A DNA stretch of 64,000 nucleotides from an uncultured Dokdonia sp. (GTDB lineage: Bacteria; Bacteroidota; Bacteroidia; Flavobacteriales; Flavobacteriaceae), in assembly GCA_938002835.1 (NCBI GenBank), contig CALKZS010000070.1, forward strand, positions 1,560 to 65,559, in the 5' to 3' direction. Both the position numbers and the translations under genes were made by a program. Below, one piece after another: positions 41,979-54,591 of this stretch. How positions within the stretch are numbered: position 1 is the stretch's first letter; each line of letters begins with the position of its first letter. Under the pieces are notes generated by a model. The model saw nothing but the letters and a program-made list of their open reading frames with translations. It had not been told where the DNA came from and searched no databases.

Positions 41979-43775
41979 ATGGAAATTAAAAACATTGCAA
42001 TTATTGCACACGTAGATCACGGTAAAACAACCTTGGTTGATAAGATTATGTATCACTGTCAACTTTTTCGTGAAAACGAAAATACAGGAGACCTCATTCT
42101 TGATAACAATGATTTAGAACGTGAGCGTGGTATTACTATTACATCAAAAAATGTTTCTGTTCAATATAAAGGAACAAAAATTAATATTATAGATACTCCA
42201 GGTCACGCCGATTTTGGTGGAGAAGTAGAGCGTGTATTGAATATGGCAGATGGAGTGTGTCTACTTGTAGATGCTTTTGAAGGACCTATGCCGCAAACAC
42301 GTTTTGTATTACAAAAGGCAATAGATTTAGGTCTTAAGCCTTGCGTGGTAGTAAATAAAGTAGATAAAGAAAACTGTACTCCAGATGAGGTGCACGAGAA
42401 AGTATTTGACCTAATGTTTGAATTAGGTGCAGAAGAGTGGCAACTAGATTTTCCTACCGTATACGGTAGTGCAAAAAACAACTGGATGTCTGATGATTGG
42501 AAAAACGAAACAGACTCTATAGAGCCGTTGTTAGATATGGTAATGGAGCATATTCCTTCTCCAAAAGTAGAAGAAGGAACTACACAAATGCTTATAACTT
42601 CATTAGATTTTTCTTCATTTACAGGTCGTATTGCGATAGGGCGTGTACAAAGAGGTGAACTTAAAGAAGGGATGCAGATCTCACTTGTAAAGCGTGATGG
42701 GACTATCAAAAAATCTAGAATTAAAGAGCTTCATACTTTTGATGGTTTAGGACGTAAGAAAGTAGCGAGTGTTCCTGCTGGAGATATTTGTGCAGTAGTA
42801 GGAGTAGAAGGATTTGAGATAGGAGATACTATTGCAGATTTTGAAAACCCAGAAGGTCTTAAGTCTATTGCAATAGATGAACCTACAATGAGTATGTTAT
42901 TTACTATTAACGATTCTCCTTTCTTTGGAAAAGATGGAAAATTTGTAACATCTCGTCACATAAAAGATCGTCTTACAAAAGAACTTGAAAAAAACCTTGC
43001 TCTTCGTGTTAATGAAACTGATAGTGCAGATAAGTTTTTAGTATATGGTCGTGGTGTACTTCACCTTTCTGTTCTTATTGAGACAATGCGTCGTGAAGGA
43101 TATGAATTACAAATAGGACAGCCACAAGTAATTATAAAAGAAATTGATGGTGTAAAATGTGAGCCAGTAGAAGAGCTTACAATAGATCTTCCAGAAAACG
43201 TTTCTGGACGTGCGGTAGAGTTTGTAACACTACGTAAAGGAGAGATGCTTTCTATGGAAGCAAAAGGAGATCGTATGATTATTGAGTTTTTAATCCCATC
43301 ACGTGGTATTATAGGACTTCGTAATCAACTTCTTACGGCTACGGCTGGAGAAGCAATTATGGCACACCGTTTTAAAGAATATCAACCACTTAGAGGTGAC
43401 ATTCCTGGACGTATAAATGGATCTTTAGTATCTATGGAAAACGGAAATGCAATTCCTTATTCTATTGATAAATTACAAGATCGTGGTAAATTCTTTGTAG
43501 ACCCAGGAGAAGATATTTATGAAGGTCAAGTAATTGGTGAGAATTCTCGTCAAGATGATATGACGGTAAATATTACTAAGACAAAGAAACTTTCTAACGT
43601 GCGTTCATCTGGAGCAGATGATAAAGCAAAGATTGTTCCTGCCATTAAGTTTTCGCTTGAAGAAGCATTAGAATATATTCAAAAAGATGAGCTTGTTGAG
43701 GTAACACCTAACTTCTTGCGTTTGCGTAAGATATACTTAAAAGAAGTAGATCGTAAGCGTAACAAGATTATATAA
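41979..43775 (+). CDS. typA: Translational GTPase TypA/BipA
   Basis: [33 protein letters not shown]. Confidence 0.98.
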   Translation: MEIKNIAIIAHVDHGKTTLVDKIMYHCQLFRENENTGDLILDNNDLERERGITITSKNVSVQYKGTKINIIDTPGHADFGGEVERVLNMADGVCLLVDAFEGPMPQTRFVLQKAIDLGLKPCVVVNKVDKENCTPDEVHEKVFDLMFELGAEEWQLDFPTVYGSAKNNWMSDDWKNETDSIEPLLDMVMEHIPSPKVEEGTTQMLITSLDFSSFTGRIAIGRVQRGELKEGMQISLVKRDGTIKKSRIKELHTFDGLGRKKVASVPAGDICAVVGVEGFEIGDTIADFENPEGLKSIAIDEPTMSMLFTINDSPFFGKDGKFVTSRHIKDRLTKELEKNLALRVNETDSADKFLVYGRGVLHLSVLIETMRREGYELQIGQPQVIIKEIDGVKCEPVEELTIDLPENVSGRAVEFVTLRKGEMLSMEAKGDRMIIEFLIPSRGIIGLRNQLLTATAGEAIMAHRFKEYQPLRGDIPGRINGSLVSMENGNAIPYSIDKLQDRGKFFVDPGEDIYEGQVIGENSRQDDMTVNITKTKKLSNVRSSGADDKAKIVPAIKFSLEEALEYIQKDELVEVTPNFLRLRKIYLKEVDRKRNKII

Positions 43776-43817: not shown

Positions 43818-43854
43818 AAACCCTACTTTTTTTAAAGTAGGGTTTTGTTTTTTT
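43818..43854 (+). terminator. Intrinsic terminator after typA
   Basis: AAACCCTACTTT/AAAGTAGGGTTT stem + T run. Confidence 0.85.
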
Positions 43855-43855
43855 A

Positions 43856-43871
43856 TGCTTTCGCGAAAGCA
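43856..43871. repeat. Palindrome copy 12, TGCTTTCGCGAAAGCA (symmetric T/A flank variant)
   Basis: Exact core; both outer bases differ from CG but remain complementary. Confidence 0.97.
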
Positions 43872-43975
43872 CACTGAAACCCATAATCATATTGTAATCT
43901 CTTAATTTGTAGTCATACGGTTATAATCTTTGATAGTAAACTATTATTTTTGAGTTATATCTTTAAAAAATAAAA

Positions 43976-44173
43976 ATGACGTTTCTTTATTTTGATCCAG
44001 GATTAGGTGCTATGATTGCACAAGGACTTGTCGCTATAGTTGCAGGTATTGTGTTGTTTTCTAAAAATGCACTTTTTAAAATAAAATCAATGTTGGGTCT
44101 TGTAAAAGAAGATGATTATGATGGGATCGACATAGATGAAGCAGATGCAGATGAAGATGAAGAAGATAAGTAA
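43976..44173 (+). CDS. 65-aa single-TM peptide with YFDPGLGA motif and acidic tail
   Basis: ATG preceded by an A-rich leader, hydrophobic helix, overlaps the next start. Confidence 0.72.
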   Translation: MTFLYFDPGLGAMIAQGLVAIVAGIVLFSKNALFKIKSMLGLVKEDDYDGIDIDEADADEDEEDK

Positions 44174-45536
44174 GAAACACGAGTCTTCTTTTAGAGATCC
44201 TTCTGGTTATGTGTTTTATGATGGAGACATTTTACGAAGGCGCATACTTCCTATATACTTTAAACAATACAAAGCACTTTCTGAGACAGGTTTTTTTAAG
44301 ACACTATCTAGAAAAGGATTACTTGTATCACATACACTCACCTCAGAAAATGAGAATGAAATCATTATTACTCCAGAGGAGATTCCTTTTATTACCTATC
44401 CATATGAATGGGGTTTTGAGCAGTATAAACAAGCAGCTTTACTCACATTAAAAATACAAAAGTATGCACTCACTAAAGGGTTTTGGCTCAAAGATGCTTC
44501 GGCCTATAATGTGACGATGTATCAAGGTAAACCTATTTTTATAGACTCCCTTTCTTTTGATTTTTATGAAGAAGGAACACCTTGGAGAGCCTATAAACAG
44601 TTTATTACTCATTTTTTTGGTCCGCTGGTGTTATCAAAATACTTTGGAAGTGATATGATAAAGATGATGCAATCTCATATAGATGGGATTCCCTTGCAAC
44701 TCATCTCATCAATGTTACCTTCAAAAACAAAGTTGAGCCCTACATTACAATCTAATATTCATTTACTAGCTAGATTAGAAGGAAAGCATAATGATGACTA
44801 TAAAGGAGAAACTAAGGTCTCAAAATTAAGTTTAAAAGCACTTAATACCATTTTAGATAGTCTGTATGATTATATCATAAAATTGCAATTTAAAGATGCT
44901 ACAGAGTGGGGAGATTATTATTCAAAGACTAATTATGATGCACAATCTTTTGAAGCAAAAAAGAAGTTAATAAAAGAATGGGTTTTACCATTAAAGGCAA
45001 AACGTATTATTGATGTAGGAGGAAATGATGGTACATTTGCAAGAGCTTTAGATAGTGATGCGCATCTTATAGTTACAGATATTGATGTAAATGCTGTAGA
45101 TCAAAATTTTAAAAAAGCACAAGCTCAAACCGAAGATAATATGTTAGCCTTTGTGAGTGATGTATTACAGCCTTCACCAGCAATAGGTTTTAATAATACA
45201 GAACGCGAATCTCTCATAGAGCGATTAGAAAAATATGCTCCAGATGTGACAATGGCACTTGCGTTAATACATCATATCACACTATCTGGCAATGTGCCTT
45301 TTGATAAATCGGCTTCTTTTTTTGCATCTTTTTCTGAACATCTCATTATTGAATTCCCTAAGCGAGAAGATTCTTGGGTAGGATCATTATTAATAAGAAA
45401 ACGAGAGTTTATAAATCATTTTGATTTTTATAATGAGTCCCATTTTGAAGAAGAGTACAAACAATATTTTGTATTAGAGAAAAAAGAAATAATTGTGGGA
45501 ACCTCACGTTTACTTTATTATTTCAAAAAGAAATAA
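44157..45536 (+). CDS. NoeA-like protein: N-terminal kinase-like domain + C-terminal SAM-dependent methyltransferase (start revised from 44136)
   Basis: SFRDPSG, LKDASAYN (DxxxxN), IFID; IIDVGGNDG SAM motif I, LALIHH. Confidence 0.8.
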   Translation: MKKISKKHESSFRDPSGYVFYDGDILRRRILPIYFKQYKALSETGFFKTLSRKGLLVSHTLTSENENEIIITPEEIPFITYPYEWGFEQYKQAALLTLKIQKYALTKGFWLKDASAYNVTMYQGKPIFIDSLSFDFYEEGTPWRAYKQFITHFFGPLVLSKYFGSDMIKMMQSHIDGIPLQLISSMLPSKTKLSPTLQSNIHLLARLEGKHNDDYKGETKVSKLSLKALNTILDSLYDYIIKLQFKDATEWGDYYSKTNYDAQSFEAKKKLIKEWVLPLKAKRIIDVGGNDGTFARALDSDAHLIVTDIDVNAVDQNFKKAQAQTEDNMLAFVSDVLQPSPAIGFNNTERESLIERLEKYAPDVTMALALIHHITLSGNVPFDKSASFFASFSEHLIIEFPKREDSWVGSLLIRKREFINHFDFYNESHFEEEYKQYFVLEKKEIIVGTSRLLYYFKKK

Positions 45537-47021
45537 ATGTCTCAAAATAAAAAACAAGGAGTACTCCAGAAATTTTTAAATAATAAAAGATCATTTCCTG
45601 TACTTGCAGGAATTTTGGCTGGGTTATATCCTATGCTTTTTTATGCAAGTAATAACTACACATTAATAAATACCTTAGGACATTTAGGCTATTTTTTAAT
45701 GATGTATATTACAATTCCTGTTGTAGTTATTTGGCTTCTATATACCTTTAGTAAAAAAGTAGTAAATGGAAAGTATACAAAGTATGTCATACCATTTTTA
45801 GGGAGTTTTATTTTTCTTTTTTTAATGCATATTTCTTATTTCGGGTTTTTGAAAAAGAAAATATCTGTGGGTCTTTTACTTATAGCAGTTTTGATTGCTT
45901 TTTTCTTATGGCGACAGTTTAAAAAGTTAATTGTTATACAAGGATTACTAGCTATAATAGGATTAATTACACTTGTGCCTAGATTAATAGAAGCAATCAC
46001 ATATGATGATTCTTGGGGGGAAGTGTCTTCAGAAATACGTGAAGCTACTTTTGTAAAAAAACCTAATATTTATTATATACAACCAGATGGTTATGTGAAT
46101 TTTTCTGAATTGTATAAAGGACATTATAAATCTAAAGACAGTACTTTTCAAAAATATCTTACTAAAAACAGCTTTACGTTTTATCCAGATTTTAGAAGTA
46201 ATTATGCTTCTACTCTTACCTCAAATAGTGCTACATTTATGATGAAGCATCATTATTATAATGGCAATCTAACTTTAGAAAATTATAATGCTCGTGATGT
46301 CATTGTTTCAAAAAATACGGTATTAGATATTTTAAAGTCTAATAATTATAAAACTCATTTACTTACAGAGCTTCCTTACTTATTACTTAATAGGCCTAAA
46401 ATGGGTTATGATTTTTGTAATATAGATTATAATGATGTAAATTATATAGGGACAGGGTTAGGTAAACCAGTTTCTACATATGATGTTCTTATGGAACATT
46501 TAAGTCTTCCTACTGAGCAACCTAATTTCTTTTTTATTGAGATTTTTAACCCAGGACATATTCACGGTAATGCAAATAAGTCTCAAGGAGTTCAGGGAGA
46601 ACGTGCATTATGGTTTGAAAGCCTGGAGATGGCACATATGAAGGTAAAAAAACACGTAGATCTTATAAAACAAAATGATCCTAATGCACTTATTATTTTG
46701 ATGGCAGATCACGGTGGTTTTGTAGGATTAGACTACACACAACAAGCTTTAAGTAAGATAGAAGATAGAGATTTATTGTATAGTATTTATAGTGCAAACT
46801 TGGCTATACACTGGCCTAATAAAACAGATCTAGAAAAGGAACTTCCTTTTAAAAGTGGTGTAAATTTCTTTAGAGTACTTATTTCATATCTTAGTAACAA
46901 TCAAAAATTGCTAGAAGAGCAAGAAAATAATGGAAGTTATGCAGTTATTAAAGAAGGAGCATCGCCAGCCATTTATCAGGTAATTGATGATAACGGAAAT
47001 GTAACATTCAAAAAACAATAG
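45537..47021 (+). CDS. Membrane-bound alkaline-phosphatase-superfamily (LtaS/sulfatase-like) protein
   Basis: About 5 TM, then PNIYYIQPDGY, STLTS, HIHG, ILMADHG. Confidence 0.78.
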   Translation: MSQNKKQGVLQKFLNNKRSFPVLAGILAGLYPMLFYASNNYTLINTLGHLGYFLMMYITIPVVVIWLLYTFSKKVVNGKYTKYVIPFLGSFIFLFLMHISYFGFLKKKISVGLLLIAVLIAFFLWRQFKKLIVIQGLLAIIGLITLVPRLIEAITYDDSWGEVSSEIREATFVKKPNIYYIQPDGYVNFSELYKGHYKSKDSTFQKYLTKNSFTFYPDFRSNYASTLTSNSATFMMKHHYYNGNLTLENYNARDVIVSKNTVLDILKSNNYKTHLLTELPYLLLNRPKMGYDFCNIDYNDVNYIGTGLGKPVSTYDVLMEHLSLPTEQPNFFFIEIFNPGHIHGNANKSQGVQGERALWFESLEMAHMKVKKHVDLIKQNDPNALIILMADHGGFVGLDYTQQALSKIEDRDLLYSIYSANLAIHWPNKTDLEKELPFKSGVNFFRVLISYLSNNQKLLEEQENNGSYAVIKEGASPAIYQVIDDNGNVTFKKQ

Positions 47022-47996
47022 TTTATCTATAAAGTTTATACATATCATCCTAATCATAAAAACGAGTGGAATGCTTTTGTAGCCATTTCTAAAAATGCCA
47101 CATTTTTGCATAACCGAGATTTTGTAGAGTATCACTCAGATAGATTTTTAGATCATTCATTAATAGTAAAAAAGGGAGAGCATATAGTTGCATTAGTACC
47201 AGCACATAAAGCAGGTGCTATAGTGCATAGCCATCAAGGGCTTACGTATGGTGGGATTTTGCTTTCGCGAAAGCAAAAAACGAAAGATACTCTCGAGATA
47301 GTAAAGGCAATACTTCTATTTCTAGAAAGTCAAGGTATCCTTAGACTTTCCATTAAGCCAGCACCACATTTTTATATGAAGCAACCTAGTGAGGAGATAG
47401 CTTATGTGTTACAATTATTAAATGCAAATTGTTACCGTATAGATACAGCCTCTGTAATAGATAATCGAGATAGATTACCCATACAGTCTAATAGAGTAGA
47501 AGGTGTGAGAAAAGCGCAGAAAAAGGGATTAATTATCAAGGAAGAAGCTGTTTTTAATGATTTCTGGCAACAAATTTTAGTGCCTAATCTCACAAAAAAA
47601 TATCAATCAAAACCTACACACACCCTTGAAGAAATAGTGTTGCTACAACACTGCTTTTCAAATAACATTAGACAGTTCAATGTATATGATGGGAAAGAAA
47701 TAGTAGGAGGAACTACTATTTTTGAAACTTCGACAGTAGCGCACGTTCAATATATCTCTGGTAATGATAATAAACAAGAGTTAGGAACATTAGATTTTCT
47801 TTTTCATTATCTCATTACAGATATATTTGCTCATAAAAGGTATTTTGACTTTGGGATTTCAAATGAAAATCAAGGAAAAAACCTAAATAGCGGATTGTCA
47901 TATTGGAAAGAATGTTTTGGTGCGCGCACGTTTGTACACAGACATTATGAAGTAGAAACTAAGAATCATTCACTTTTAAATGATGTGTTAATATGA
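47022..47996 (+). CDS. GNAT/FemAB-like acyltransferase; family-like N-terminus extends to 47022 but the first canonical start is TTG 47106
   Basis: W..FV..SKNATFLHNRDF.EYHSDRF, HQGLTYGG, FDFGISNE, WKECFGAR. Confidence 0.8.
   Translation, partial: FIYKVYTYHPNHKNEWNAFVAISKNATFLHNRDFVEYHSDRFLDHSLIVKKGEHIVALVPAHKAGAIVHSHQGLTYGGILLSRKQKTKDTLEIVKAILLFLESQGILRLSIKPAPHFYMKQPSEEIAYVLQLLNANCYRIDTASVIDNRDRLPIQSNRVEGVRKAQKKGLIIKEEAVFNDFWQQILVPNLTKKYQSKPTHTLEEIVLLQHCFSNNIRQFNVYDGKEIVGGTTIFETSTVAHVQYISGNDNKQELGTLDFLFHYLITDIFAHKRYFDFGISNENQGKNLNSGLSYWKECFGARTFVHRHYEVETKNHSLLNDVLI
47257..47278. repeat. Palindrome copy 13 (22 bp, TTTT-core-AAAA), inside the GNAT gene (LSRK frame)
   Basis: Exact core 47261-47274. 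Confidence 0.97.
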
Positions 47997-49099
47997 TTCC
48001 TTTTTTAAATCTTAAGAATCTTAATGCTCCTTATGAGAAAGAACTCAAACAACAGTTTGACCGTTTTTTAAATACCGGATGGTATATTTTAGGAGAAGAA
48101 GTTACCTTTTTTGAAAAAGAATATGCTACCTATTGTGGGACATCGCATTGTGTAGGAACAGCAAATGGGCTGGACGCCATTCGTATTATTTTAGAAGGGT
48201 ATAAGATTTTAAAAAAACTTCATCTAGGAGATGAGGTTCTTGTAGCGAGTAATACCTATATAGCAACGATTATAGCAATTAAGCAAGCAGGATTAATTCC
48301 TGTTTTAGTAGAAGCAGATCTAGATACTTTTAATTTTGATTTTAAGGATCTAGAAAGTAAGATTACTTCTAAAACTAAAGTTGTATTACCTACACATCTT
48401 TATGGTCAGCTTACAGATATGGAGAAGATATTTGCTTTTGCAAAAGCACATCATTTATTAATTGTTGCAGATTGTGCTCAATCTCACGGGGCGCAAACTA
48501 ATGATGGTAATAAAAGTGGTTCTCTTGCAAATGCAGCTGCGCATAGCTTTTATCCTACAAAGAATCTAGGAGCTCTTGGTGACGCTGGGGCGATCACTAC
48601 AGATGATAATGAGCTGGCTGATGTAATTAAAAAATATAGAAATTACGGTTTTGAAAAAGCATATATTGCAAAGTATATAGGTGTTAATTCTCGTCTCGAT
48701 GAGTTACAAGCTGCTTTTTTGAGAATTAAATTAAGAGATTTAGACCATCAAAACAATAAACGCATTGCCATTGCAAAGCGTTATCTCTCAGAGATTAAAA
48801 ATGAATATATCATAATGCCTCAATGGAATGGCCAGAAAGATCACGTTTTTCATTTGTTTGTGATTCGTTCTAAGTATCGCAATGAACTACAAGAGTATTT
48901 GAAGAATAATGGGATACATACCATTATTCATTACCCAATACCACCACATAAACAAGAAGCGTTACAGGAGTTTAAAGAACTTTATTTTCCTACTAGTGAG
49001 CAGTTACATAATGAGGTACTAAGTATTTCTACAGATCCTACATTAACGCCAGTTGAGGTAGATAAAATCATCAGTGTTATAAACAATTTTGTATGCTAG
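47993..49099 (+). CDS. DegT/DnrJ/EryC1/StrS PLP-dependent sugar aminotransferase (FdtB/QdtB-like)
   Basis: NGLDA, DCAQSHG, SFYPTKNLG, NSRLDELQAA. Confidence 0.93.
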   Translation: MIPFLNLKNLNAPYEKELKQQFDRFLNTGWYILGEEVTFFEKEYATYCGTSHCVGTANGLDAIRIILEGYKILKKLHLGDEVLVASNTYIATIIAIKQAGLIPVLVEADLDTFNFDFKDLESKITSKTKVVLPTHLYGQLTDMEKIFAFAKAHHLLIVADCAQSHGAQTNDGNKSGSLANAAAHSFYPTKNLGALGDAGAITTDDNELADVIKKYRNYGFEKAYIAKYIGVNSRLDELQAAFLRIKLRDLDHQNNKRIAIAKRYLSEIKNEYIIMPQWNGQKDHVFHLFVIRSKYRNELQEYLKNNGIHTIIHYPIPPHKQEALQEFKELYFPTSEQLHNEVLSISTDPTLTPVEVDKIISVINNFVC

Positions 49100-50394
49100 G
49101 GAAGTTGTATGGTAAGATTACAAACAACCTACTTTTAAAGATTACTTCTTTAAATGCCATAGCAGTATTATTCCAAATAATAGGAGGTTTTATCACTTCA
49201 AAACTCATTGCAATTTATTTAGGTGAACGAGGAATGGCATTGTTAGGATATTTGCGCAATTTTTTGACCACCACACAGGCTATAGCAAACCTAGGTTATA
49301 GTAATGGCGTTGTAAAATATGTAGCTTCTCATAAAGATAATAAACCGTTATTATCAAAGATGTTGTCATCTTCTATTATTATGAGTTTTGTTGCCTCCAT
49401 AATAATTTCTGTGATATTGTATGTAGGAGCTCCGTTCTGGAATAATGCCGTTTTTGGAAGAGACATATCTTATGTCTATATATTTAAATATCTTGCTTTT
49501 GCTATTCCTTTTATCACAGCAAATAGTATTCTGATTGCAATTATAAATGGACAATCTGCCTATAAAAAAGTGGTATGGATTAATATAGTGACTAATGCAA
49601 TGGGTATTGGGATTACCGCCTATTTGATCATCACAAAAGGAATAGAAGGAGCATTTATTGCAATGGTGATAAGTCCAGCTATTGCAGTATTAGTCACATT
49701 AATTTTAATAGGAAAACAAGCTAGACTTCTAAGATTATTAGTTGCCAAAGTATCATTTACGGCCATAAAGAAAATGAGTTCATACACCATTATGGCTGTT
49801 TTTTCTATGATGGTTTTACCTTTGGTTTATATTGCGATACGTAATCAAATTGTAACTTCAAGCGGAATTGAAGCAGCGGGTTATTGGGACGCGATGACAC
49901 GTATTTCTGATTATTACATCAAGTTTGTAGCTACAGTGATGACTTTGTATATATTACCACAGCTTGCAAAAACAACAACTGATGTTGCATTTAGAAAAGA
50001 GATTTTTGCGTTTTATAAAACAATATTGCCTTTGTATGGTGTAGGTTTGCTAATAATATTTTTATCTAGAAAGTTTATTATCCAGATACTGTTTACAGAA
50101 GATTTTATACCTGTATCATCGCTTTTTAAATGGCAATTATTAGGAGATTTTTTTAAGGTAGCCTCTCTGGTGATAGGATATCAAATTATTGCTAAAAATA
50201 ATTTAAAACTCTTTCTATTCACTGAGATTATCTCTCTTATAGTAATATATATATCAGGAATTTATTTTGTAAAATTGTATGGGTATGAAGGTGGTGCCAT
50301 AGGACATTGTTTAAGTTATTTTGTGCATTTATTAATGTTACTGTTTATCTTTAGAAAACCACTTTTTGGAAAAATAAAAGAAGCCAGTGCGTAG
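49093..50394 (+). CDS. wzx: O-antigen/oligosaccharide flippase (WzxE-like)
   Basis: About 12 TM, G..GMA..G..RNF, AGYWDAM.RISD, WQLLGDFFK. Confidence 0.88.
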   Translation: MLGKLYGKITNNLLLKITSLNAIAVLFQIIGGFITSKLIAIYLGERGMALLGYLRNFLTTTQAIANLGYSNGVVKYVASHKDNKPLLSKMLSSSIIMSFVASIIISVILYVGAPFWNNAVFGRDISYVYIFKYLAFAIPFITANSILIAIINGQSAYKKVVWINIVTNAMGIGITAYLIITKGIEGAFIAMVISPAIAVLVTLILIGKQARLLRLLVAKVSFTAIKKMSSYTIMAVFSMMVLPLVYIAIRNQIVTSSGIEAAGYWDAMTRISDYYIKFVATVMTLYILPQLAKTTTDVAFRKEIFAFYKTILPLYGVGLLIIFLSRKFIIQILFTEDFIPVSSLFKWQLLGDFFKVASLVIGYQIIAKNNLKLFLFTEIISLIVIYISGIYFVKLYGYEGGAIGHCLSYFVHLLMLLFIFRKPLFGKIKEASA

Positions 50395-50917
50395 ATTAGG
50401 ATCTTTCATACAGTTTTTTCGTATTCTTAAATACAAGTTACTTTCAACAAATAAACACATTGAAGGTAAAGCAATAGTACATCAACCTGCTCAGGTAAAT
50501 GGAGAAGGGGTAATACGCTTTCGCGAAAGCGTACACATAGGGGTCACAAATTCACCCCAGTTTTATAATACATATGCATATATAGAGGCTCGAAAGAAAG
50601 GGAGTGAGATTGTTTTTGGAGAGAATGTAGCAATCAATAATAACTTTTGTGCAATTGCAAATGAATCGTCTATTACTATTGGAGATCATACCACGATAGG
50701 ATATAACGTATCAATTTATAACTGTAACTTTCATAGTCTTGACCCTGAAAAACGAAGAGAAGAAACTGGTAGTAGTAAACCTGTATATATCGGGAAGAAT
50801 GTTTTTATAGGAAATAACGTAAGCATTTGGAAAGGTGTCACCATAGGAGACAATGCTATTATACCCGCAGGAAGTATTGTAAAAGTTGATGGCTTAGAAG
50901 GAAGTACTTTTTCTTAA
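50387..50917 (+). CDS. Left-handed beta-helix O-acyltransferase (GTG start)
   Basis: Hexapeptide repeats, PVYIGKNVFIG, KGVTIGDNAII. Confidence 0.87.
   Translation: MRRLGSFIQFFRILKYKLLSTNKHIEGKAIVHQPAQVNGEGVIRFRESVHIGVTNSPQFYNTYAYIEARKKGSEIVFGENVAINNNFCAIANESSITIGDHTTIGYNVSIYNCNFHSLDPEKRREETGSSKPVYIGKNVFIGNNVSIWKGVTIGDNAIIPAGSIVKVDGLEGSTFS
50514..50533. repeat. Palindrome copy 14 (20 bp), inside the acyltransferase gene (RFRES frame)
   Basis: Exact. Confidence 0.97.
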
Positions 50918-50977: not shown

Positions 50978-51934
50978 GTGGAAAACTGGAAAGATATACA
51001 GTTAGAGTATGATTTACTTGATTTTTTAAAGCGTCTAGATGCTCAAAAAAATCAATTAGATAGTTACAGACCTATCCCACCTACTAAAATAAAGAGTATT
51101 AAAGAGTCTCTAGATCTAGAATGGACATATAATTCTAACAGTATAGAAGGGAATACATTATCTTTAATGGAAACCCTTGTGGTTGTTAAAGATGGTCTTA
51201 CCATTGCTGGAAAATCTTTGAGAGAGCATTTTGAAGTGATTAATCATACAGAGGCTATTGCTTTTGTAGAAGACTTGGTACAACCTAATTATAAACTTTA
51301 CAAAAGAGATATACTTGAGGTACACGCTCTGGTTTTAGATAAGATTGATAAAGAGATTGCAGGTATTTATCGTGATGGCTCTGTAAGAATACAAGGAGCA
51401 AACTTTGTTCCTCCAGAGGCATTATTAGTAAGAGAGTTAATGGACGATCTTATAGATTGGTACAATACCACTGCTCAAAAATTACATCCTATTGTAAGAG
51501 TGAGTGTTTTCCATCATCGTTTTGTTTGGATACATCCTTTTTTTGATGGTAATGGTCGTACGGCTAGACTTATTTTTAATTTATTATTAATGAGTGCTGG
51601 GTTCCCTCCAGCTATTATCCTTAAGGTAGATAGAAAAAAATATTACGCATCTCTAAATGCTTCTAATAAAGGTGATTATGCTAAGTTTTTTTTATTAGTC
51701 GCTCAAGCAGCAGAGCGTTCTTTATCTATATATTTGGGTGGTTTAGATAATACGTTACATAGCTATAAACCTATTAATGATATTGTTAATGAACCAGATG
51801 TGCCTTATGGTCAGGAATATGTAAGCTTGCTTGCAAGAAGGGGTAAGATAGAAGCATACAAAGAAGGACGTGTATGGTATACTAGTAAAAAAGCAATAGA
51901 TACCTATCGCAAGACTAGAGAACGAAAACGATAA
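50978..51934 (+). CDS. Class II Fic-domain protein with a C-terminal HTH_17/excisionase-like tail
   Basis: HPFFDGNGRTAR catalytic motif; SNSIEG inhibitory motif; EYVSLLARRGKIEAYKEGRVWYT tail. Confidence 0.9.
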   Translation: MENWKDIQLEYDLLDFLKRLDAQKNQLDSYRPIPPTKIKSIKESLDLEWTYNSNSIEGNTLSLMETLVVVKDGLTIAGKSLREHFEVINHTEAIAFVEDLVQPNYKLYKRDILEVHALVLDKIDKEIAGIYRDGSVRIQGANFVPPEALLVRELMDDLIDWYNTTAQKLHPIVRVSVFHHRFVWIHPFFDGNGRTARLIFNLLLMSAGFPPAIILKVDRKKYYASLNASNKGDYAKFFLLVAQAAERSLSIYLGGLDNTLHSYKPINDIVNEPDVPYGQEYVSLLARRGKIEAYKEGRVWYTSKKAIDTYRKTRERKR

Positions 51935-54189: not shown

Positions 54190-54591
54190 ATGAAAAAACT
54201 AGCTTGCTGGGTAGAGATCCCGAGAATAACAGACCCTAGAGGGAATCTAGCTGTTATAGAAGGGGAGATATTGCCTTATACTATTGCACGGGTATATTAT
54301 TTACACGACGTGCCTAGTGATGCATACCGTGGTGGCCACGCTCATAAAGAGTGTGAAGAATTATTGGTGGCTGTAAGTGGTAGCTTTGAAGTGGTTTTAG
54401 ACAATGGTTTAAAGAAAGAGCGAGTAATGCTCAATAAACCTAACAAAGGTTTATTAATTACAAAAGGTATATGGAGAGAGCTAGATAATTTTTCTTCTGG
54501 AGCTGTTTGTTTGGTAATGGCATCACATACTTATGATGAAGATGATTATATTCGAGATTATGAATCTTTTTTAGAATCAAAAAGACGATAA
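54190..54591 (+). CDS. dTDP-4-keto-6-deoxyhexose 3,4-ketoisomerase (FdtA/QdtA-like cupin)
   Basis: DPRGNL, RVYY, RGGHAH, GIWREL. Confidence 0.9.
   Translation: MKKLACWVEIPRITDPRGNLAVIEGEILPYTIARVYYLHDVPSDAYRGGHAHKECEELLVAVSGSFEVVLDNGLKKERVMLNKPNKGLLITKGIWRELDNFSSGAVCLVMASHTYDEDDYIRDYESFLESKRR

Follow-up and report, generated by a model that had tools for sequence, protein, structure and literature searches.

The genes at positions 43976-47021 of a 64,000-nucleotide stretch of DNA from an uncultured Dokdonia sp. (the whole of which we call the window) form a new flavobacterial member of a published gene family rather than an undescribed system. These genes encode a microprotein, a fusion of a kinase-like domain and a methyltransferase domain, and a membrane enzyme of the alkaline phosphatase (AP) superfamily, and we are highly confident that the trio belongs to the NoeA/NoeB cassette family. 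The three genes make up a self-contained module that moves horizontally. An earlier note on this DNA had presented it as an uncharacterised unit, a claim that falls given that the trio, the kinase prediction and the comparison with WbdD were all published in 2022 (PMC9758233). Cassettes of the noeA/noeB type have by now turned up in some archaea and in thousands of bacteria, so a single solution of their chemistry would give a very large family its annotation and may reveal a new envelope modification.

Much of what the earlier note described is borne out. The open reading frames lie exactly where it placed them, overlapping or abutting, all of the motifs that it listed (LKDASAYN, IFID, IIDVGGNDG, PDGY, STLTS, HIHG and ADHG) are present in the translations, and the series GNAT-aminotransferase-wzx that it reported downstream corresponds to a GNAT/FemAB-like gene, a DegT aminotransferase and a Wzx flippase. 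The features of the locus are as follows.

43818-43845, + strand: terminator-like hairpin, a 12-bp stem and then a T run, 3' of typA (41979-43775)
43945-43952, + strand: candidate promoter element TATTTTTG, fitting the -7 pattern TAnnTTTG, 24 nt 5' of the microprotein ATG
43976-44173, + strand: microprotein gene, 65 aa (open reading frame and homologues in other loci)
44157-45536, + strand: NoeA-like kinase-like/methyltransferase fusion, 459 aa (466 aa from an alternative ATG at 44136)
44184-44801, + strand: predicted atypical protein-kinase-like domain, residues about 10-215 (invariant residues, model, Foldseek, published prediction)
44904-45533, + strand: class I SAM-dependent methyltransferase domain (Foldseek and conservation)
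45537-47021, + strand: NoeB-like membrane AP-superfamily enzyme, 494 aa (model, Foldseek, profile match)
45594-45998, + strand: five predicted transmembrane helices of the NoeB-like protein, residues about 20-154 (AF2 secondary structure and Foldseek)
46062-47018, + strand: predicted extracytoplasmic AP-fold domain of the NoeB-like protein (D184, T226, H341, D391-H392)
47025-47996, + strand: GNAT/FemAB-like gene (context), its conserved N-terminus starting directly after the NoeB-like stop
47993-49099, + strand: DegT-type aminotransferase (context)
49093-50394, + strand: Wzx flippase (context)
50387-50917, + strand: hexapeptide acetyltransferase (context)
54190-54591: FdtA (context)

The three genes of the trio are translationally coupled. 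The fusion gene overlaps the microprotein gene by 17 nt if it starts at ATG 44157 or by 38 nt if it starts at ATG 44136, and the ATG of the NoeB-like gene abuts the TAA of the fusion gene. The hairpin at 43818-43845 marks the upstream boundary of the trio unit, and from the fit of TATTTTTG to TAnnTTTG, the Bacteroidota -7 promoter consensus, we infer a possible promoter between this hairpin and the microprotein gene.

The noeA-noeB pair was first named in the alfalfa symbiont, where, as the work of Ardourel et al. (1995) is relayed in PMC9758233 and PMC9048898, it lies in the pSymA nod-box n5 operon nodL-(71-aa ORF)-noeA-noeB. A tblastn comparison with Sinorhizobium meliloti pSymA records matched the fusion, across 96% of its length, to the product of the annotated noeA gene (30.4% identity, E 4e-46), which upholds the NoeA-like label of the earlier note. 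S. meliloti NoeB aligns over 423 columns with a profile of 23 NoeB-like sequences (A2; hhalign probability 98%, E 1.7e-13); pairwise BLASTP alone was not significant. The 71-aa ORF between nodL and noeA encodes ..VPAHA|YLDPGTGS followed by a transmembrane helix. The two operons thus match gene for gene, in the same order and on the same strand, with an overlap between the small ORF and noeA in both. They differ in setting: the S. meliloti operon, in the relayed account, is flavonoid-induced and headed by nodL, which encodes a Nod-factor O-acetyltransferase, whereas the flavobacterial trio lies downstream of typA and ahead of an amino-sugar glycan block that depends on Wzx. They differ also in the microprotein, which has a signal peptide in S. 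meliloti and starts 4-5 residues before the motif in flavobacteria, and in the length of NoeB (553 aa in S. meliloti, 494 aa here).

A second described relative is Lani_1193/1194/1195 of Legionella anisa (small ORF/NoeA/NoeB; Krysinska et al. 2022, Sci Rep 12:21782, PMC9758233), which shares with the flavobacterial trio the fusion architecture and both conserved neighbours. That study predicted computationally that a class I methyltransferase is joined to an atypical kinase in which Arg replaces Lys72 and D/N/D are conserved, and it counted Flavobacteriales among the main carrier orders. In contrast to our reading, it viewed the proteins as possible secreted effectors, and it left the small ORF unanalysed; the present analysis adds the topology of the microprotein, the tandem NoeB paralogues and the synteny in Flavobacteriaceae. 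The literature that we searched held no biochemical or genetic data on any family member past the 1995 host-range phenotype and no experimental follow-up of PMC9758233.

The N-terminal half of the fusion appears to retain an intact atypical kinase site. Its key residues are an RDPSG loop, R28 as the equivalent of Lys72, the catalytic loop LKD113ASAYN118, and IFID130SLS as the equivalent of DFG; R28, D113, N118 and D130 are invariant or about 100% conserved in 90 NoeA-like sequences from many phyla. In the AF2 model of the fusion (mean pLDDT 86.9), this half shows the order of secondary structure elements of a minimal kinase, and Foldseek returned with this model a single kinase (ROCK1, 3ndm_C, E 1.4e-5) among methyltransferase matches. 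A HMMER profile of 49 N-terminal domains found no match among all PDB sequences at E values up to 10. When these 49 domains were compared with Pfam up to E 10, only RIO1 emerged (E 0.12, two of 49 members), and hhalign with nine aligned kinase domains of the APH family gave a probability of 0.07%, with no profile similarity to the APH/choline-kinase superfamily. Searches of the PDB with phmmer, using either the fusion or the NoeB-like protein, likewise gave nothing meaningful. What supports the predicted kinase assignment is therefore its motifs, the model and published work rather than homology at the sequence level.

The C-terminal half is predicted to be an intact SAM-binding methyltransferase domain. 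Its key residues comprise motif I (D286-V-G-G-N-D-G292), D308, D335, HH372-373 and E399; DxGxNxG is invariant in the same 90 NoeA-like sequences, with D286, G288 and G292 about 100% conserved. The top 45 Foldseek matches of the fusion model are class I methyltransferases, including WbdD (4azt/4azs/4ax8) and NodS (3ofk). A PE N-methyltransferase (8ys9_B) is also among the Foldseek matches, and the methyltransferase matches do not tell O-, N- and C-methylases apart. No transmembrane helix is predicted in the fusion, which should therefore be cytoplasmic.

The NoeB-like protein is modelled (AF2, pLDDT 86.4) as five long N-terminal helices (residues 20-154), in agreement with the approximately five transmembrane segments counted in the earlier note, followed by an AP fold. 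YejM/PbgA structures (6v8q, 6xlp) head its full-length Foldseek matches, which also take in EptA and MCR-1, and further matches include EptC, LtaS and S1 sulfatases. Five N-terminal transmembrane helices joined to an extracytoplasmic AP fold are likewise found in EptA/MCR-1/EptC, LtaS, OpgB and YejM/PbgA, and a Thr nucleophile and Asp/His metal ligands occupy equivalent places in enzymes of the EptA/LtaS/OpgB type. Among 80 NoeB-like sequences from many phyla, D184 is found in 79, H341 and D391 each in 78, T226 in 73 (with Ser in 5 more) and H392 in 73 (with Glu in 5 more). We propose T226 as the candidate nucleophile and the Asp and His residues as putative metal ligands. The AP-superfamily ligands named in the earlier note are thus conserved at D184, T226, H341, D391 and H392, but not at H343, the second His of HIHG. 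With respect to EptA, LtaS, OpgB and YejM, the NoeB-like protein differs in that its sequence similarity lies below family thresholds and that it alone is linked to a cytoplasmic kinase/methyltransferase, a link found in no known member of those families. It scored 21.8 bits against PF00884 (Pfam Sulfatase), for which the cut-off is 25, and had no NCBIfam match. The C/S-x-P-x-R motif of S1 formylglycine sulfatases is absent at the nucleophile, where T226 sits in YASTLTSNS; the similarity to sulfatases in fold and profile is at the superfamily level only. Overall, conservation, the AF2 models and Foldseek support the earlier calls of a kinase-like domain, a class I methyltransferase and an LtaS/EptA-like AP-superfamily protein.

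The 65-residue microprotein is a single-pass membrane protein. A short N-terminus with YFDPGLGA leads into its one transmembrane helix, which is followed by a basic stretch and then an acidic tail. Versions from Proteobacteria, archaea and other groups carry a signal peptide that closes with ..AxA immediately before Y[LI]DPG; the flavobacterial protein starts 4-5 residues ahead of the motif. The Y-x-D-P-G-x-G motif should lie outside the cytoplasm because the mature N-terminus begins there where a signal peptide exists. Among 274 proteins and all ORFs of the loci, no fusion of this motif to a NoeA-like or NoeB-like protein was found.

Co-occurrence of the trio, which the earlier note had proposed as a check, extends across phyla. 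Microprotein homologues with [YF]xDPGxG and a transmembrane helix are encoded on the same strand in 74 of 89 loci, mostly overlapping the NoeA start, and a NoeB-like gene adjoins the fusion gene in 61 of 85 loci (35 of 35 in Flavobacteriaceae and about half of the others). The active sites are conserved in Bacteroidota, Chloroflexota, Proteobacteria, Aminicenantes, Saccharibacteria and archaea. Two further loci (L056 and L070) carry a larger PF00884 enzyme in place of the NoeB-like gene, and three of five genomes checked, all MAGs, have the fusion gene and microprotein with no detectable NoeB-like gene, which suggests that the product of the fusion may be useful without NoeB. NoeB-like genes often occur as 2-4 divergent tandem copies beside a single fusion gene, and all of these paralogues keep D-T-H-D-H. 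Between genera, identity is about 70% for the fusion versus about 45% for NoeB-like proteins. What is conserved across phyla is the trio only, and it is in Flavobacteriaceae alone that it sits between typA and the glycan block. When 127 neighbour genes from outside this family were classified with Pfam, no consistent partner beyond the trio emerged; the neighbours are heterogeneous and not regularly glycan genes. The description of the module as the head of a glycan operon accordingly holds for this window and for many Flavobacteriaceae but is not a property of the module, and the flavobacterial glycan block is itself also found without the trio.

Based on these features, we lean toward the view that the trio decorates an envelope glycoconjugate with a substituent that contains phosphate. 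The fusion would act on a lipid or lipid-linked precursor at the membrane's inner face, where the microprotein may hold it, and the NoeB-like enzyme would pass the phospho-group via a phospho-Thr226 intermediate to an acceptor at the outer face. The stronger conservation of the fusion and the multiplication of NoeB-like genes fit a constant fusion chemistry with variable NoeB-like acceptors. That the substituent is specifically methyl-phosphate, as the earlier note inferred, is a coherent idea that we regard as doubtful. A further elaboration, a lipid-donor cycle used by no known system with the fusion, the NoeB-type enzymes and the microprotein as its three parts, strikes us as unlikely. In such a cycle the membrane-tethered fusion would phosphorylate a lipid alcohol (e.g., diacylglycerol left by the transferase) and methylate the phosphate, the methyl-phospholipid donor would flip, and the NoeB-type enzymes would move methyl-phosphate via phospho-Thr226 onto different envelope acceptors, each served by its own paralogue; the microprotein, whose 7-residue Y-x-DPGxG N-terminus is exposed, would be an obligatory third subunit bridging both membrane faces.

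E. coli O9a WbdD is a methyltransferase-kinase that acts as an O-antigen chain terminator (PDB 4azs, 4azt), and its cap is read by the Wzm/Wzt ABC exporter. Like the fusion, it carries kinase and SAM methyltransferase within a single chain, and it acts on envelope glycans. Its methyltransferase domain superposes on that of the fusion, for which 4azt, 4azs and 4ax8 are among the best Foldseek matches, and the module of the window adjoins a glycan locus, all of which is consistent with a WbdD-like terminator that would cap the non-reducing end of a growing polysaccharide with methyl-phosphate on the cytoplasmic side and thereby determine chain length, with the NoeB-like protein as an unrelated add-on. 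We nevertheless judge this improbable. WbdD begins with its methyltransferase, continues with its kinase and ends in a C-terminal coiled-coil/membrane anchor, whereas in the fusion the domain order is reversed, as the earlier note had recognized, with the kinase-like domain first and the methyltransferase second. The kinase domain of the fusion is also much more divergent, and the fusion model stops at the methyltransferase sheet, lacking any long C-terminal helix, coiled-coil ruler or membrane-binding helix. The local pathway relies on a Wzx flippase rather than an ABC transporter, with no Wzm/Wzt pair beside the adjacent glycan locus, and in other phyla the module travels without glycan genes. 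A terminator would moreover leave unexplained the tight link to a microprotein and an AP-superfamily enzyme, neither of which is a partner of WbdD.

Enzymes of the EptA/PptA type draw head groups from phospholipids, and the fusion could, with a similarly low probability, be a small-molecule or lipid head-group kinase and N-methyltransferase (ethanolamine/choline-kinase-like and phospho-base/PE N-methyltransferase-like) whose product, for example N-methyl-PE or a lipid of the phosphocholine type, would serve as donor of a methylated phospho-base that the NoeB-like enzyme transfers to surface molecules, as Neisseria PptA does. The PE N-methyltransferase 8ys9_B among the Foldseek matches and the published Phyre2 match to phosphoethanolamine N-methyltransferase (PMC9758233) favor this proposal, but the inability of the methyltransferase matches to separate methylase types, the dissimilarity of the kinase-half profile to the APH/choline-kinase superfamily, and the absence of LicC/LicD or Pcs/Pmt genes within the window argue against it. 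The top rank of 6v8q and 6xlp might alternatively indicate that the NoeB-like protein, like YejM/PbgA, regulates or binds lipid without catalysis, and that the module is a signalling or regulatory unit of kinase and membrane sensor. YejM/PbgA works chiefly in regulation and not as a transferase; however, D184/T226/H341/D391/H392 are kept in 91-99% of the 80 sequences and in every tandem paralogue, as expected of an active enzyme, and the paralogues diversify like acceptor-specific transferases, which makes such a non-catalytic role very unlikely. Least credible of all is a RiPP-like system in which the small ORF, at the head of an operon encoding a kinase and a methyltransferase, would supply a precursor peptide modified by the products of the other two genes. 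A transmembrane helix makes the peptide a membrane protein, and many lineages give it a signal peptide as well; its conserved motif lies outside the cytoplasm, while the fusion has no export signal, the Flavobacteriaceae motif DPGLGA offers no Ser, Thr or Tyr after Asp, and the neighbour census revealed no protease or exporter genes linked to the trio.

Returning to the phospho-form decoration that we prefer, the genes downstream of the trio provide a possible acceptor in this genome. The DegT aminotransferase, Wzx, hexapeptide acetyltransferase, FdtA and GT4/GT2 genes constitute a glycan locus of the 3-acetamido-3,6-dideoxyhexose type (Fuc3NAc/Qui3NAc-type), and these glycan genes are coupled operon-like to the trio. 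We tentatively suggest the product of this adjacent Wzx-dependent locus as a candidate acceptor. A PADLOC search found no defence-system match. The NoeB-like gene is present in only one copy in this genome, and the window offers a clean single-copy flavobacterial case whose tight coupling to a defined locus for an amino-sugar glycan could make it tractable for an acceptor search. As a minor observation, the GNAT-like gene probably starts at ATC 47025, 3 nt past the NoeB-like stop, and not at TTG 47106.

The three genes at 43976–47021 were confirmed as a unit on one strand, and every motif cited for them in the earlier note was found in the sequences. The genes and the elements upstream of them are:

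41979–43775, typA, upstream of the three genes
43818–43845, terminator-like hairpin, upstream of the three genes
43945–43952, TAnnTTTG motif, upstream of the three genes
43976–44173, + strand, microprotein ORF, 65 aa
44136–45536, + strand, fusion ORF (NoeA-like), 466 aa
45537–47021, + strand, NoeB-like ORF, 494 aa

The microprotein opens with MTFLYFDPGLGAM; a hydrophobic helix comes next, then basic residues, and the C-terminal tail is acidic. Homologs of the fusion protein align from residue ~12–17 of the 466-aa ORF; a start at the ATG at 44157 gives the 459-aa protein of the earlier note and a 17-nt overlap with the microprotein ORF. The TAA of the fusion gene is followed without a gap by the ATG of the NoeB-like gene. 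A perfect palindrome, GCTTTCGCGAAAGC, lies at 43857–43870, just 3' of the typA terminator hairpin.

The trio belongs to a family that has already been published. The Legionella anisa Lani_1194 family was described as homologous to NoeA and as the fusion of an atypical kinase with a methyltransferase, with an architecture likened to that of WbdD, with Flavobacteriales as a major carrier order, and with two conserved neighbors: Lani_1193, a small hypothetical protein, and Lani_1195, a NoeB with an alkaline phosphatase (AP) fold and an HHpred match to EptA (Krysinska et al. 2022, PMC9758233). In rhizobia, noeA and noeB act in nodulation and are classed as host-range genes. We found no later experimental work on the family in the literature searched. 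The earlier interpretation is partly supported: it holds for the enzyme classes (kinase-like, methyltransferase, and AP superfamily), and the system is a new member of an already described family.

The fusion protein had no match in a Pfam search and only a faint methyltransferase match in NCBIfam, although its family is very large (5916 matches among 8000 proteins scored, as 90% clusters; 4713 of the 50%-identity representatives match). Members go by "class I SAM-dependent methyltransferase" in several sources and, for some UniRef entries, by "nodulation protein NoeA". The NoeA-like label of the earlier note is borne out by the annotated noeA of Sinorhizobium pSymA (tblastn against plasmids: 30.4% identity, 96% coverage, E 4e-46). 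Across 90 aligned members from many phyla (numbered from the M at 44157), the near-invariant residues are R13-D14-x-x-G17, R28, H59, E84-W85, L-K-D113-A, N118, and I-D130-T/S-L-S toward the N-terminus, and D286-x-G-x-N-x-G292, D308, D335, H372-H373, and E399 in the C-terminal half. The C-terminal half of the AF2 model (mean pLDDT 86.9) is a Rossmann-type methyltransferase, and Foldseek against the PDB returns class I methyltransferases including WbdD, NodS, and a PE N-methyltransferase, in keeping with the methyltransferase domain proposed earlier. The N-terminal half follows the minimal-kinase order (beta hairpin, helices, two strands, long helix, catalytic loop, two strands, Asp, helices), and a single kinase, ROCK1 (E 1.4e-5), is among the matches. 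Because sequence methods detected no kinase similarity in this domain, the assignment is structural and motif-based; the model nevertheless supports the proposed kinase-like N-terminal domain, in agreement with the published analysis (PMC9758233).

The Sulfatase match of the NoeB-like protein, encoded by a single-copy gene in this genome, falls below the Pfam threshold. In its AF2 model (pLDDT 86.4), five long helices at the N-terminus precede an AP fold, and Foldseek gives full-length matches to YejM/PbgA, MCR-1, and EptA and domain-level matches to EptC, LtaS, and S1 sulfatases, which agrees with the LtaS-like membrane enzyme first proposed. The family profile matches S. meliloti NoeB with a probability of 98% (hhalign). 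Among 80 family members, D184 is kept in 79, T226 in 73 (Ser in 5 more), H341 in 78, D391 in 78, and H392 in 73 (Glu in 5 more); in the HIHG motif, previously read among the ligands, the second His is not conserved. The C/S-x-P-x-R motif is absent from the protein, which rules out a formylglycine sulfatase and argues for a Thr-type transferase-like enzyme.

The microprotein has no match in Pfam or NCBIfam, and a search for its motif fused to larger trio proteins found none. At 74 of 89 loci, a same-strand small ORF encodes [YF]-x-D-P-G-x-G ahead of a TM helix and a basic tail, overlapping or abutting the NoeA-like start in nearly all of them. In several lineages, among them Proteobacteria, archaea, and Aminicenantes, a typical signal peptide ending in A-x-A immediately precedes Y-[LI]-D-P-G (the S. 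meliloti 71-aa ORF between nodL and noeA, and loci L052, L057, L063, L085, and L089), so the motif would be the N-terminus of the mature protein, exposed at the membrane's outer face. The Flavobacteriaceae microprotein starts just 4–6 residues ahead of the motif.

The fusion family is patchy (13/301 genomes sampled across the phylum, 3/22 in the family). Approximately 9 of 30 genomes of the genus carry an ortholog of the window's fusion gene; a distant, paralogous NoeA-like type (~30% identity, 477 aa) is found in ~10 of the 30, and at least one genome, G430, has both. Related loci occur in Flavobacteriaceae, Chloroflexota, Gammaproteobacteria, Aminicenantes, Krumholzibacteria, Saccharibacteria, Clostridia, Nitrosopumilaceae, and Methanobacteriota. 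As well as the small ORF, a NoeB-like gene is adjacent in 35/35 Flavobacteriaceae loci and 26/50 others, so the co-occurrence that the earlier note proposed to check does extend elsewhere. A larger PF00884 enzyme replaces it at L056 and L070. Of five genomes searched that lack an adjacent NoeB-like gene, one encodes it at another site, one carries a decayed copy, and three showed none; because they are MAGs, these absences are weak evidence. In the Chloroflexia MAG G383, where no NoeB gene adjoins the NoeA-like gene, a NoeB-like gene at another site (L128–L130, contig C7, 49260–50741) is split into three pieces with internal stops.

In 12 of 32 Flavobacteriaceae loci, 2–4 tandem NoeB paralogs, 34–60% identical and all with D184, T226, H341, D391, and H392 intact, stand beside a single NoeA-like gene (for example L014:7410–13304, L032:4467–10374, and L033:7370–12857). 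At L032 one paralog lies between the microprotein and NoeA-like genes. Between genera, NoeA-like proteins are ~70% identical whereas NoeB-like proteins, diversifying and multiplied, are ~45% identical, a contrast that points to unchanging donor chemistry but acceptors that vary.

The trio is most likely an envelope phospho-form decoration module, in which a cytoplasmic kinase/methyltransferase would act at the membrane, where the microprotein might dock it, and the extracytoplasmic Thr-type NoeB-like enzyme would transfer the phospho-substituent. The methyl-phosphate substituent proposed earlier is a conjecture compatible with these enzyme classes. We do not favor a WbdD-like capping enzyme, the published likeness and the Foldseek match to WbdD notwithstanding, nor head-group N-methylation, the activity of the matched PE N-methyltransferase. 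A YejM-like regulator, for which the full-length YejM/PbgA match might speak, and a RiPP system, with the microprotein as its peptide, are likewise not favored.

In 35 Flavobacteriaceae loci, typA is upstream of the trio in 24, and GNAT/FemAB-like (21), DegT (18), and Wzx (16) genes are downstream. The GNAT-DegT-Wzx block occurs in 31/80 genera of the family, in several genomes directly 3' of typA with the trio absent, so this site seems to carry the trio as an optional insert. Outside Flavobacteriaceae, neighbors are heterogeneous, 127 genes including a few glycosyltransferases, sulfatases, and nucleotidyltransferases; the trio's place at the head of a glycan operon therefore stands for this window and many Flavobacteriaceae loci but not beyond the family. 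Here, the GNAT/FemAB-like, DegT aminotransferase, Wzx, and hexapeptide acetyltransferase genes 3' of the trio, together with Fic, two GT4, FdtA, and GT2 genes, indicate a Wzx-dependent, 3-acetamido-3,6-dideoxyhexose-type glycan. The FdtA-type 3,4-ketoisomerase gene is at 54190–54591; with the aminotransferase and acetyltransferase, it suggests a sugar of the dTDP-Fuc3NAc/Qui3NAc type in the local glycan. The Fic-domain gene (PF02661, E 2.7e-22; 50978–51934) lies within the cluster, with the hexapeptide acetyltransferase gene on one side and a convergent GT4 gene on the other.

No ATG, GTG, or TTG is present at the conserved N-terminus of the GNAT/FemAB-like gene (47019–47110). Homology to 29 flavobacterial orthologs starts at 47022–47025, directly 3' of the NoeB-like TAG and in the same frame, which probably puts the glycan genes 3 nt after NoeB rather than 85 nt. 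Opposite the ATC at 47025, ~11/30 loci have ATT or ATC; in the remainder, an ATG, GTG, or TTG precedes the aligned position by one or two codons. Stop-codon readthrough into this gene is less likely; the alignment suggests conserved AUU/AUC initiation.
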